From Escherichia phage alia: 64,000 bases of DNA. Where the stretch lies: the sequence record NC_052655.1. The stretch is one strand, 5' to 3'. A model generated the notes under the pieces. It ran no database searches, was not told the DNA's origin, and saw only the letters and a program-made list of their open reading frames with translations. Shown piece after piece: positions 10,819 through 12,768 of this stretch (position 1 is the stretch's first letter; every line of letters starts with the position of its first letter). Both the position numbers and the translations under genes were made by a program.

Positions 10819-12216
10819 ATGACAGCACCAAAATCATGGGAACAATATAAAGAAGAATTAACACCCCTTGCTAAAAATCACAATATTCAAATCCTGGGTT
10901 ATGTTGGGGAATGGAAAGGGAGCAAGACTAAACTTAAACTATCTTGCCCTGATCATGGAGAGTGGGAAAGTACCGTAATCACTAACTTTAAAACTAGAGG
11001 CGGTAAATGTTGCCCCGATTGCAATGGTCATAGAAAAGTAACAGAAGAAAAGGAATGTATTTCCCTTGTTGATGTTGCTAAAGAAAGAGGGTTTACTTTT
11101 ATAGGTCTTGCCGAGGAGTGGCGAGGTGTACGAACAAAAATTCGCATAATTTGCCCTAAACATGGAGAGTGGAACACCACAAATATTATTAGTTTTAGGA
11201 ATGGACATGGTTGTCCGACATGTGCAAGTAATAAGCCGTTAACATGGGAAACAGAATTACCGATCTTGGAAGAGATAGCACAGAAGAAGGGGTATCAAGT
11301 GTTAGGGTACGTTGGAGAATGGAAAAGAAATAAAACAAAACTTGATTTGTTGTGTCATTGTGGTTATAAATGGGATACTACAAGTATTAACAGTTTTAAA
11401 CGTGGTAGTGGTTGTCCTTTATGTGGGTATAAGAATACAGGTAAGTCACAAACAATATCCGACGATCAACATATTGCAGATTTCTTTTCTACTGGTGTCT
11501 TCCCTGAAGGCACTATCTTCACTAACACAGGAGCACGGGGGAAAGGATGTGGGCATATTATCTGGATGGTTGAATGTCCTGTTTGCTCTCATGATGAATA
11601 TGTTCAAGCAGGTGTTTGCGATGGTAAATTTTACTCTAAAGGATATAACCTTAAACGAGGACACATGCCGTGTCGTTGTGGAAACTATCATTATACAGAA
11701 GACCAGATCACCTACAAAGTGAGAAAGGAAGTAGAGAGTAAAGGGTATATTTGGGTAGGATGGATCAGTAAACCTAGTGCAAAAGGCAAGTTTAAATATT
11801 GGTGCAATAAACACGGGGAGCAAATTGGAAATGCTGATAGTTTGATACATAGGGGAGCTGGGTGTCCACAGTGTGCTGGTCATAGTCAACAGCAATTATA
11901 TATTAATATTGTTAAAGATAATGATATTATAGTTGCTCTTAAGTTTGGTATAGCTAAAGATAGCGATAGACGATTAAACCGTCAAAATAACCATAATATG
12001 TTTTTTATGGAGCGTATTTGTTTATATGATTTTAGTACAACGAAACAGTGTAAGGCTGCTGAAAGAGCTATAAAGAAAAAATTAAAAACTGGTATCTTAA
12101 CAGCAAGAGAGTTGAAAGACGGTTATACAGAAACAGTAAGTGTTTCTGATTTGGAAAATCTTCAAAAAATTATTACACAATATGGTGGCAAATTAGTATA
12201 TAGTAAGGAGGTGTAA
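10819..12216 (+). CDS. zinc-ribbon repeat protein with C-terminal GIY-YIG-like (T5orf172-type) domain, putative nuclease
   Basis: At least three repeats of LGYVGEWKG..CP.HGEW..GCP.C; C-terminal LYINIV..KFGIA..R..E pattern. Confidence 0.55.
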   Translation: MTAPKSWEQYKEELTPLAKNHNIQILGYVGEWKGSKTKLKLSCPDHGEWESTVITNFKTRGGKCCPDCNGHRKVTEEKECISLVDVAKERGFTFIGLAEEWRGVRTKIRIICPKHGEWNTTNIISFRNGHGCPTCASNKPLTWETELPILEEIAQKKGYQVLGYVGEWKRNKTKLDLLCHCGYKWDTTSINSFKRGSGCPLCGYKNTGKSQTISDDQHIADFFSTGVFPEGTIFTNTGARGKGCGHIIWMVECPVCSHDEYVQAGVCDGKFYSKGYNLKRGHMPCRCGNYHYTEDQITYKVRKEVESKGYIWVGWISKPSAKGKFKYWCNKHGEQIGNADSLIHRGAGCPQCAGHSQQQLYINIVKDNDIIVALKFGIAKDSDRRLNRQNNHNMFFMERICLYDFSTTKQCKAAERAIKKKLKTGILTARELKDGYTETVSVSDLENLQKIITQYGGKLVYSKEV

Positions 12217-12768
12217 ATGCGGATTACTGACAAGTATGTATTCTTCTTCTCAGCAAAAGATGAATTTAGCAACTGGTATCTATCATCTTTTATTGAACCT
12301 TTAGCACCCAAGTATAATAATTCTATTACAAATTCTGTTGAATTTACTTGTGTGGAACAATATATGATGTGGAGAAAAGCATGTTTATTTTATGATTACA
12401 ACATTGCATCCTCTATTTTAACCGGAGATCTAAGATATACAGGAGAAAAAGAACAAGCATATTATAAACGACTAGGCAGATTAGTTAAAGATTATGATGA
12501 AGATACCTGGACTTCTTTACGGGAGAAGATTGTCAAGCGTGGTTTGTATCTTAAATACACACAAAATGAAGATCTCAAAAATAAACTTATCGCTTACGCA
12601 GATAAGGAGTTTGTAGAAGCAAGCCCTTATGATTCTATTTATGGTATCAAAATGGGGATGTGGGATCGGGACGTGGAAAATAAGGATTGTTGGAAAGGAC
12701 AAAATCTTTTAGGAAAATGGCATACAGACCTTGCTGTTTATCTAAAAGCACAATCTGATATTTCCTGA
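12217..12768 (+). CDS. NADAR (YbiA/DUF1768-like) domain protein
   Basis: FFFSAKDEFSNW, VEQYMMWRKACLF, WKGQNLLGKW motifs; start abuts upstream stop. Confidence 0.6.
   Translation: MRITDKYVFFFSAKDEFSNWYLSSFIEPLAPKYNNSITNSVEFTCVEQYMMWRKACLFYDYNIASSILTGDLRYTGEKEQAYYKRLGRLVKDYDEDTWTSLREKIVKRGLYLKYTQNEDLKNKLIAYADKEFVEASPYDSIYGIKMGMWDRDVENKDCWKGQNLLGKWHTDLAVYLKAQSDIS

Follow-up and report, generated by a model that had tools for sequence, protein, structure and literature searches.

An AdfN-type NADAR gene abuts a CapR/T5orf172 homing-type endonuclease gene in Escherichia phage alia, very probably as an independent neighbour

In Escherichia phage alia (Stephanstirmvirinae), the stop codon of a gene for a 465-aa zinc-finger nuclease (TAA, 12214-12216) is followed directly by the start codon of a gene for a 183-aa NADAR protein (ATG, 12217-12219), which raises the question of whether the two products work together or are simply neighbours. 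A first-pass annotation of the 64,000-nucleotide stretch of DNA analysed here (hereinafter the window) had reported this abutment, which we confirm, and had read it as translational coupling within an unusual pair of proteins. Our analysis indicates that these are very probably independent genes that have become neighbours by chance in one genus: a NADAR orthologous to AdfN(Bas60) and a T5orf172 homing-type endonuclease.

Between the endonuclease gene and the AAA ATPase gene that precedes it lies an intrinsic-terminator-like hairpin (Table 1) with five G-C pairs within its stem; the RNA of 10750-10870 is predicted to fold at -27 kcal/mol (z=-2.99), and the record of phage Paula has a terminator annotated at the equivalent site. 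The 37 nt that separate the terminator from the start of the endonuclease gene contain no convincing sigma-70 promoter. Neither gene has a detectable paralogue within the window, and Rfam and tRNA scans of the window returned no matches. The NADAR gene lies between the endonuclease gene and a gene-poor stretch of about 1.5 kb; rib genes are not found near it, and an ART domain is absent from the flanking proteins tested, i.e., there is no adjacent DarT toxin. Two ORFs, of 149 aa and 89 aa, that lie within the endonuclease gene on the minus strand were taken as spurious because the profile support for the plus strand is strong.

Table 1. Features of the endonuclease-NADAR locus of phage alia (nucleotide positions in the window; residue numbers refer to the 465-aa protein)
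Feature	Position	Strand	Remarks
Intrinsic-terminator-like hairpin, gap between AAA ATPase and endonuclease genes	10760..10781	+	9-bp stem, T-rich tail
Shine-Dalgarno of endonuclease gene, AAGAGGAG	10805..10812	+	6 nt 5' of ATG; read directly
Endonuclease gene	10819..12216	+	465 aa, ATG start, TAA stop; exact protein match to YP_009985205.1 'endonuclease [Escherichia phage alia]'
CapR-type zinc-finger repeats R1-R3	10819..11454	+	aa 1-72, 73-140, 141-212; number varies among homologues
Direct repeat, left copy, TTGCCCTGATCATGGAGAGTGG	10944..10965	+	22 nt; encodes C-P-D-H-G-E-W
Direct repeat, right copy, TTGCCCTAAACATGGAGAGTGG	11151..11172	+	20/22 identical, 207 nt downstream of left copy
Zinc-finger repeats R4-R5	11455..11880	+	aa 213-354; always beside nuclease domain; most divergent, mosaic segment
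Zinc unit R1			C43/H46/C65/C68
Zinc unit R2			C112/H115/C132/C135
Zinc unit R3			C179/C181/C199/C202
Zinc unit R4			C253/C256/C285/C287
Zinc unit R5			C329/H332/C349/C352
T5orf172 nuclease domain, predicted GIY-YIG fold	11881..12213	+	aa 355-465
Shine-Dalgarno of NADAR gene, AAGGAGG	12205..12211	+	within last endonuclease codons, 5 nt 5' of ATG
adfN-type NADAR gene	12217..12768	+	183 aa, ATG start; protein identical to YP_009985206.1 of phage alia

The first-pass annotation had identified the product of 12217-12768 as a NADAR protein and proposed a profile search to check it. That search bears the assignment out: the protein matches Pfam PF08719 (DUF1768; E=1.9e-36; 126.2 bits, gathering score 35.1; positions 9-154 of the 163-position profile), phrog_1017 (E=2.3e-50), and NCBIfam TIGR02464 (109.8 bits, cut-off 73.7), the last of which covers the generic NADAR domain, so that passing it does not discriminate between functions. 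Among the hallmark motifs named earlier, EQY..W.KA (E47-A55) and W.GQNLLG (W169-G176) are correct, but F17-S18-N19 had been mistaken for the canonical 'LSNF' motif, which aligns instead with L22-S23-S24-F25 when the protein is compared with the solved structure of PnNADAR. In a sequence search of the PDB, this guanine-ADPr hydrolase (8BAU) was the closest solved structure (E=8.8e-13); neither E. coli YbiA nor DarG1 was retrieved at E<=0.01. All the ADPr contacts of PnNADAR are kept in alia, namely E47 (PnNADAR E43), K54 (K50), R88 (R79), W98 (W89), R102 (R93), E134 (E125), and D139 (D130), and these include the ribose-positioning Glu (E47), the phosphate-binding Lys (K54), and the second acidic catalytic residue (E134) of the superfamily. 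The gene is under strong purifying selection (dN/dS 0.04-0.07), and the 90%-identity cluster of the protein has 108 members.

At 180 of 183 positions (98%) the alia protein is identical to bas60_0111 (QXV83846.1) of phage PaulScherrer (Bas60), and none of the three substitutions (N39S, N62S, A178T) falls at an ADPr-contacting residue. We equate bas60_0111 with AdfN(Bas60) on the grounds that it is the sole NADAR annotated in the 15.8-kb stretch of the PaulScherrer record that we examined. Further grounds are the bas60_/bas61_ locus tags, the way NADARs are annotated in PaulScherrer, EmilieFrey, and JohannJBalmer, and a count of NADAR loci at 726 places in 723 phage records, nearly all of which have one. 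By sequence, then, the alia protein is an AdfN(Bas60) orthologue, an 'orphan antitoxin' without a DarT partner. In published experiments, which used ectopic expression, AdfN(Bas60), specific for guanine-ADPr, neutralised DarT1 toxicity and restored the plating of RB69, T5, and Bas25 on cells with DarTG1 but not DarTG2, and the authors' phylogeny placed it among the non-YbiA, non-DarT-associated bacterial NADARs (Johannesman et al., Nat Commun 2025; PMC11825919). Orthology leads us to predict that the alia NADAR likewise neutralises DarT1 and plays this role in native infection: as an ADP-ribosylglycohydrolase, it would remove the ADP-ribose put by DarT1 on N2 of guanine in single-stranded phage DNA, permitting phage replication in DarTG1-carrying hosts. 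The earlier suggestion of an anti-defence gene was right but is not new, as anti-DarT NADAR biology was published in 2025 for this 98% identical protein; the case confirms that a reading of sequence alone can correctly flag a phage counter-defence gene. YP_009985206.1, currently a 'hypothetical protein', can be re-annotated as an AdfN-type NADAR.

Comparison with named enzymes helps to place this protein. AdfN(Bas60) is also a 183-aa orphan NADAR, and its gene occupies the same position, preceded by the same ATPase and endonuclease genes, although the PaulScherrer endonuclease allele beside it is only 84% identical to that of alia. DarG1 (E. coli C7 and Geobacter lovleyi; Schuller et al., 2023; PMC11543638) has in common with the alia NADAR the fold family, the reaction attributed to the latter (removal of ADP-ribose from guanine N2), and the conserved Glu/Lys equivalent to E47/K54; however, the alia protein has neither an N-terminal extension nor an adjacent toxin, and its second catalytic position is Glu (E134) as opposed to the Asp of DarG1-type enzymes. 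AdfN(T4) (gp30.3; 'phage NADAR' family) is another phage-encoded NADAR that counters DarTG1, but it belongs to a different clade from the Bas60 type, and T4-type enzymes have His at the E125-equivalent position and require the T-even infection context, whereas the Bas60 type acts alone in E. coli. In view of its Glu-type catalytic residue, as in NADARs reported in 2026 to remove cytidine-ADPr in addition to guanine-ADPr, the alia enzyme might conceivably have a broader substrate range than T4-type AdfN; if so, it could counter ADP-ribosyltransferases other than DarT1.

Turning to the upstream gene, its 465-aa product matches phrog_681 ('endonuclease'; E=4.1e-92, residues 1-462), the Pfam CapR homology domain PF21817 (E=4.7e-48, five matched stretches), and DUF723 (1.2e-6). 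Zinc-ribbon repeats had been recognised in the first-pass annotation as 'three or more'; they are indeed present, and the count is five. We delimited them from the stretches matched by Pfam, from the alignment, and from repeats at the nucleotide level (a BLASTP self-comparison of the protein reported no internal repeats), and found four Cys/His ligands in each unit, those of R3-R5 being invariant or nearly so across homologues. The match of the C-terminal region to T5orf172 (PF10544) is borderline (20.1 bits, cut-off 20; only positions 11-69 of the 101 in the profile are covered), and a precomputed PF10544 match exists in only 2 of the 120 homologues listed. A confident structure model of this region has the GIY-YIG α/β fold, with weak Foldseek E-values (0.27-3), and residues of catalytic type are conserved in 30 homologues (Y361 nearly invariant; K375, G377, I378, R385, E415, and E438 invariant), in agreement with the GIY-YIG-like motif noted earlier at the C-terminus. 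What does not hold is that its combination with zinc repeats is unusual: T5orf172 homing endonucleases are normally built in this way, 200/229 of those surveyed by Barth et al. (2023; PMC10448857) having CapR/DUF723-type zinc fingers, and T5orf172 nuclease activity is documented for Odn (PMC10448857). From the profile matches and the model we infer a free-standing T5orf172 homing-type endonuclease, in which the five tandem CapR modules would recognise an extended DNA site, to be cleaved by the C-terminal GIY-YIG-fold domain. The class itself is already known, having been described in 2021-2023, and YP_009985205.1 ('endonuclease') can be re-annotated as a CapR/T5orf172 homing-type endonuclease.

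The repeats are the variable part of this protein. By length, homologues group into classes of 263, 325-339, 390-408, 465-477, and 547-562 aa, which differ by whole N-terminal repeats. For example, the Paula allele has an exact 207-nt (69-codon) deletion whose left endpoint is the left copy of the 22-nt direct repeat, and longer degenerate nucleotide repeats are also present between zinc units. R4-R5 have a nucleotide identity of 68-80% to PaulScherrer/Paula against 95-100% in the flanks, with dS of 0.5-1.4 as compared with 0.06-0.19 in neighbouring genes, while dN/dS (versus PaulScherrer) reaches ~0.9 or higher in R1 and R3. These patterns indicate that the modules diversify by loss and gain of whole repeats via short direct repeats, by recombination importing divergent R4-R5 segments, and by amino-acid replacement in R1-R3. 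Strong purifying selection acts on both the NADAR and the ATPase (dN/dS 0-0.07), and in the nuclease between them the DNA-reading modules are shuffled, deleted, and replaced; the locus neatly illustrates how adjacent genes can evolve under two opposite regimes.

Among known relatives, the T5orf172 HEGs of ICP1 (such as gp174 and gp165) likewise combine tandem N-terminal CapR zinc fingers with a C-terminal T5orf172 domain, and lose single repeats in frame via intragenic repeats (207 nt in alia and 228 bp in gp174; PMC10448857); identity to ICP1 proteins is ~30% across roughly 57% of the alia protein, which differs from them in having five repeats and in belonging to another host and another phage family. 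PLE CapR (Netter et al., 2021; PMC8096241) has no nuclease domain, unlike the alia protein, and is a repressor. With the GIY-YIG nucleases I-TevI and Slx1/HIGLE, sequence identity is 12-17%; the alia protein carries its nuclease domain at the C-terminus and not at the N-terminus, with motifs in their T5orf172 form (LYI ... KFGI ... R ... E ... TE).

Stop and start codons abut in 3/3 of the Justusliebigvirus genomes compared (alia, PaulScherrer, and Paula) and only there; in Phapecoctavirus, two small ORFs lie between the genes. Moreover, each gene occurs without the other: KP2025 has an endonuclease homologue without a NADAR, and Klebsiella phage 05F01 has a NADAR without the endonuclease, as do phages of Staphylococcus, Listeria, Bacillus, Enterococcus, and Stenotrophomonas. 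The NADAR gene has a Shine-Dalgarno of its own (AAGGAGG in alia; AAGGAGA in PaulScherrer and Paula), and the RNA of the junction folds at -13.2 kcal/mol (z=+0.94; 166/200 shuffles fold at least as well), with no RNA structure that would enforce translational coupling found there. Of the coupling proposed in the first-pass annotation, the abutting codons therefore stand, but the consensus Shine-Dalgarno and the unstructured RNA speak against dependence on upstream translation; a functional link between the genes is likewise not supported, given the restriction of the junction to the three Justusliebigvirus genomes among those compared and the occurrence of each gene alone in relatives. The abutment is probably a matter of tight gene packing, with probable co-transcription, rather than the mark of a two-component system.

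Each of the two assignments has a competitor that deserves weighing. The NADAR might be a metabolic N-glycosidase of the YbiA/RibX type, clearing reactive riboflavin-pathway intermediates rather than de-ADP-ribosylating DNA in vivo: TIGR02464 is named 'riboflavin intermediates N-glycosidase'; E. coli YbiA shares with the alia protein the NADAR domain, the pass of this model, and the Glu at the catalytic (E125-equivalent) position that is typical of general and YbiA-type NADARs; and several GenBank entries are labelled 'putative YbiA-like N-glycosidase' or 'GTP cyclohydrolase II'. Furthermore, YbiA and T4 gp30.3 hydrolysed G-ADPr in vitro yet did not rescue cells from DarT1, so that activity in vitro is by itself no proof of a role. 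AdfN(Bas60), however, did what YbiA did not, neutralising DarT1 in cells and rescuing three phages on DarTG1 (PMC11825919), and the published phylogeny puts it outside the YbiA group (PMC11825919). PnNADAR is the sole solved structure reached by sequence at E<=0.01, with YbiA missing; no rib genes lie nearby, where a YbiA-type enzyme would be expected in a housekeeping context (rib fusion or linkage, or the LexA operon); and a lytic phage would have no evident need to detoxify riboflavin intermediates. We hold the metabolic role to be highly improbable and the labels on related records to be probably misleading. The nuclease, for its part, might be a domesticated weapon or regulator rather than a selfish homer, acting like Odn against satellites or competing phages or as a repressor like I-TevI and CapR, in which case the fast turnover of its DNA-binding repeats would track a moving target. 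Its gene follows the ATPase gene in every E. coli-infecting member examined, in two genera, Justusliebigvirus and Phapecoctavirus (alia, phiWec181). We found no HEG-less empty site in these members and no clean one among close relatives: in the Klebsiella phages FKP3 and phi1_175008 the endonuclease is absent from the post-ATPase slot, which other genes occupy, and EP57, where the NADAR is reduced to a fragment and tiny ORFs are numerous, is probably an assembly that is poor or has a deletion. One locus shared by two genera with no empty site is atypical of an actively homing element and would also fit a domesticated nuclease or regulator, as would the invariance of the nuclease residues while R1/R3 diversify and R4-R5 are mosaic, and the fact that the closest public allele is just 84% identical despite flanks that are 98-100% identical. 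Yet the alia protein has CapR fingers and not the RepA_N domain that marks Odn-like proteins, homologues at a different locus in KP2025 and at up to three places per record in some relatives suggest mobility, and mosaicism and repeat turnover are also known in bona fide HEGs (PMC10448857). On balance, we regard domestication as a serious but minority reading, and a homing-type endonuclease as the preferred one.

At the level of the gene pair, the alternative is a functional module, in which the endonuclease spreads adfN as co-converted cargo (a 'HEG island') or the two are coupled translationally or functionally. Such a module would account for the abutment in all three Justusliebigvirus genomes compared and for a terminator upstream of the pair with none between the genes; mobilisation of neighbouring cargo by HEGs has been proposed (Barth et al., 2023; PMC10448857), and a second, independent nuclease-NADAR adjacency is seen in Vequintavirinae-type phages, where the NADAR gene is followed directly by an HNH endonuclease gene (phrog_5200). 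We nevertheless consider it improbable, given the two ORFs that intervene in Phapecoctavirus, the NADARs without the HEG in 05F01 and five other phage lineages, the HEG homologue without a NADAR in KP2025, the consensus Shine-Dalgarno in unstructured RNA, the sufficiency of AdfN(Bas60) alone under ectopic expression (PMC11825919), and evolutionary rates that lie far apart (dN/dS 0.05 for the NADAR, 0.3-0.4 for the endonuclease). Quite unlikely, too, is that the CapR/T5orf172 nuclease and adfN form a 'conflict cassette', in which cutting of the locus in co-infecting relatives with another allele or none would lead to repair that co-converts adfN; were this true, homing would drive the spread of an anti-DarT counter-defence gene, and competition between cassette alleles in an arms race would explain why the R3-R5 fingers are hypervariable. 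Two independent genes thus remain our preferred reading. We rejected the idea that phage NADAR genes generally have a nuclease gene beside them: no such neighbour is annotated in Kayvirus, Pecentumvirus, a Bacillus phage, Kochikohdavirus, or Bosavirus. The arrangement is confined to Stephanstirmvirinae, with the T5orf172 gene upstream of the NADAR, and to Vequintavirinae-type phages, with the HNH gene downstream.

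Profile searches bore out the first-pass annotation's assignment of the 183-aa protein, an exact match to YP_009985206.1 of phage alia ('hypothetical protein / NADAR domain-containing protein'), to the NADAR family: it scores 126 bits with the Pfam NADAR profile (cut-off 35) and 110 bits with TIGR02464 (cut-off 74), and it matches phrog_1017 (E=2e-50). The sole solved structure retrieved with it by sequence (E<=0.01) was the Phytophthora NADAR 8BAU (E=9e-13), for which hydrolysis of guanine-ADP-ribose has been demonstrated (Schuller et al., 2023; PMC11543638). Alignment with 8BAU revealed counterparts for all ADP-ribose contacts described in that work (E47, K54, R88, W98, R102, E134, and D139), with Y142 of the alia protein replacing W133 of the Phytophthora enzyme. 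Its second catalytic position is Glu, as in general and YbiA-type NADARs, unlike the Asp of DarG1 and the His of T4-type phage NADARs.

The further proposal that this is an anti-defence gene proved right and already demonstrated, because the protein is identical at 180/183 residues to bas60_0111 of Escherichia phage PaulScherrer (Bas60), taken to be the NADAR of that phage known to counter DarT1. Phage alia is an E. coli myovirus of the genus Justusliebigvirus (Stephanstirmvirinae), and PaulScherrer is the closest other record (94% nucleotide identity over the endonuclease/NADAR locus); the three substitutions (N39S, N62S, and A178T) are all remote from the active site. Bas60, Bas61, and Bas62 encode a NADAR named AdfN(Bas60), which neutralizes DarT1 in E. 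coli with no need for other phage factors, lets RB69, T5, and Bas25 plate again on DarTG1 cells, and has no effect on the thymidine-specific DarTG2 (Johannesman et al., Nat Commun 2025; PMC11825919). These tests used ectopic expression, and we found no native NADAR knockout in the text of that paper. Judged by its sequence, the alia NADAR is an orthologue of the experimentally characterized AdfN(Bas60), with a predicted anti-DarT role; the adfN-type gene has a dN/dS of 0.04-0.07, pointing to strong purifying selection. Separately, in Listeria phage LP-064 (L008:975-4687) a NADAR homologue lies amid RNA-repair genes coding for an RtcB-like ligase, a 'tRNA amidotransferase', and an RNA ligase, a hint that some phage NADARs may target RNA instead of DNA.

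Coordinates of features (window positions; L-numbered entries are stretches of other phage records)
Feature	Position	Strand	Remark
AAA+ ATPase gene	9617-10744		upstream of endonuclease gene; Pfam: AAA+ module only
Endonuclease ORF, 465 aa	10819-12216	+	stop TAA
NADAR ORF, 183 aa	12217-12768	+	ATG directly after TAA of endonuclease ORF
67-nt AT-rich tandem repeat	12983-13190		two clear copies and a degenerate third
Gene-poor, partly GC-rich block	13000-13700 (especially 13301-13395)		99-100% identity to PaulScherrer, Paula
Fur-box-like palindromes	13205-13300; 24423-24441; 25280-25298		match to E. coli Fur consensus
19-nt inverted repeat	13209-13227 / 13230-13248		within Fur-box-like region
NADAR and phrog_5200 HNH endonuclease loci	L004:4501-5446, L005:4408-5556, L006:4501-5459		NDO71, A5-4, Salmonella phage

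The 465-aa protein exactly matches YP_009985205.1 of phage alia ('endonuclease / CapR homology domain-containing protein'), and its earlier description as a zinc-ribbon-repeat protein with a GIY-YIG-like C-terminus stood. Pfam recovered five CapR-homology stretches (R1-R5; E=5e-48), each with four Cys/His ligands, weaker DUF723 and DUF4379 zinc-finger matches, and a borderline T5orf172 match, while phrog_681 ('endonuclease') takes in its full length. Y361 is almost invariant, and K375, G377, I378, R385, E415, and E438 fully so, in an alignment of 30 homologues with as little as 25% identity, which argues for a functional nuclease active site. Repeated CapR/DUF723/DUF4397 zinc fingers form the DNA-binding part of T5orf172 homing endonucleases, in which in-frame deletions between repeats also occur (Netter et al., 2021, PMC8096241; Barth et al., 2023, PMC10448857); DUF4397 (PF14344) is the name as published, the Pfam model matching here being DUF4379 (PF14311). 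Such fingers were present in 200/229 surveyed members (Barth et al., 2023), and the ICP1 homing endonuclease genes studied by these authors match the 465-aa protein in sequence. Its architecture is thus not unusual, and both it and the NADAR belong to classes already known from publications.

The endonuclease homologues fall into length classes differing by entire N-terminal repeats, with R4, R5, and the nuclease domain present in all those aligned. The allele of Paula, a third Justusliebigvirus, lacks exactly 207 nt, the deletion endpoints lying in a 22-nt direct repeat that codes for the C-P-x-H-G-E-W of R1 and R2. Nucleotide identity to PaulScherrer and Paula drops to 68-80% at 11400-11900 (R4-R5), against 95-100% in the flanks; dS there is 0.5-1.4, versus 0.06-0.19 in neighbouring genes, which led us to reject mere mutation and to infer that R4-R5 was imported from a divergent allele. 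R1 and R3 have a dN/dS of ~0.9 or higher. The best public nuclease allele is 84% identical to that of alia, compared with 98% for the NADAR protein, and clusters at 90% identity hold 6 endonucleases versus 108 NADARs.

Both ORFs, and the abutment of stop and start, lie just where the first-pass annotation placed them. The junction is common to alia, PaulScherrer, and Paula, but the first-pass view of an unusual, translationally coupled pair did not hold. The NADAR start has its own consensus AAGGAGG 5 nt upstream, and RNA folding found no significant structure around it; coupling is possible, not required. In the Phapecoctavirus phiWec181 two small ORFs separate the nuclease homologue (36% identity) from the NADAR (57% identity), KP2025 has a nuclease homologue in a different context without a NADAR, and in Klebsiella phage 05F01 a NADAR without the nuclease lies close to an RNA ligase. 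What follows the ATPase gene is a variable accessory slot: in Klebsiella Stephanstirmvirinae it is filled by other genes, FKP3 having a DNA methyltransferase along with unknown proteins, and phi1_175008 a phrog_24465 protein with a DUF6939 protein (L013:2679-3634 and L016:2681-4245), which may be alternative counter-defence cargo. NADAR homologues were found in 723 phage records, and none adjoined a nuclease in the five unrelated lineages sampled. Adjacency does recur once, in Vequintavirinae-type phages (NDO71 and A5-4) and one Salmonella phage, where a phrog_5200 HNH endonuclease directly follows the NADAR gene; an exonuclease gene comes next in NDO71 and the Salmonella phage, and only 'hypothetical proteins' in A5-4. 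This recurrence keeps alive, at low probability, the reading of NADAR as anti-defence cargo of homing elements. Junctions, relatives' loci, and the NADAR start yielded no evidence that the pairing is meaningful.

Alia, PaulScherrer, and Paula share an ATPase with 100% protein identity, their genes showing 14-20 synonymous differences and 0 non-synonymous ones; public labels call it 'FtsH-like protease' or 'ATPase or Zn metalloprotease', and Pfam found no peptidase domain in it. A terminator-like hairpin lies upstream of the endonuclease-NADAR pair with no convincing promoter found between the hairpin and the pair; expression probably relies on read-through or on a promoter specific to the phage.

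Downstream of the NADAR gene, the gene-poor block is conserved above its flanking genes in PaulScherrer and Paula. Its segment 13301-13395 is ~80% identical to DNA left without annotation in Salmonella, Cronobacter, and Erwinia phages of the Vequintavirinae type, and a match to the T5-like phage Gostya9 covers 13200-13272; no Rfam family or tRNA was detected in the block, which could be an uncharacterized non-coding RNA or regulatory element. The tandem repeat, labelled only 'repeat_region' in phages inny and muut, could represent iterons or promoter repeats. The E. coli Fur consensus GATAATGATAATCATTATC has five matches with <=3 mismatches (0.05 expected; five reached in 0/100 shuffles), in non-coding DNA just 3′ of the NADAR gene and two other places; these may mark promoters under the control of host Fur, or serve as a Fur decoy. 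Finally, records labelled as Campylobacter jejuni phages resemble this E. coli phage locus: A110a (MG065689) and C3 (MG065656) at 89-91% nucleotide identity, and B15 (MG065650) at 59% (NADAR) and 46% (endonuclease) amino-acid identity; the hosts given for them, or the purity of the samples, appear questionable.
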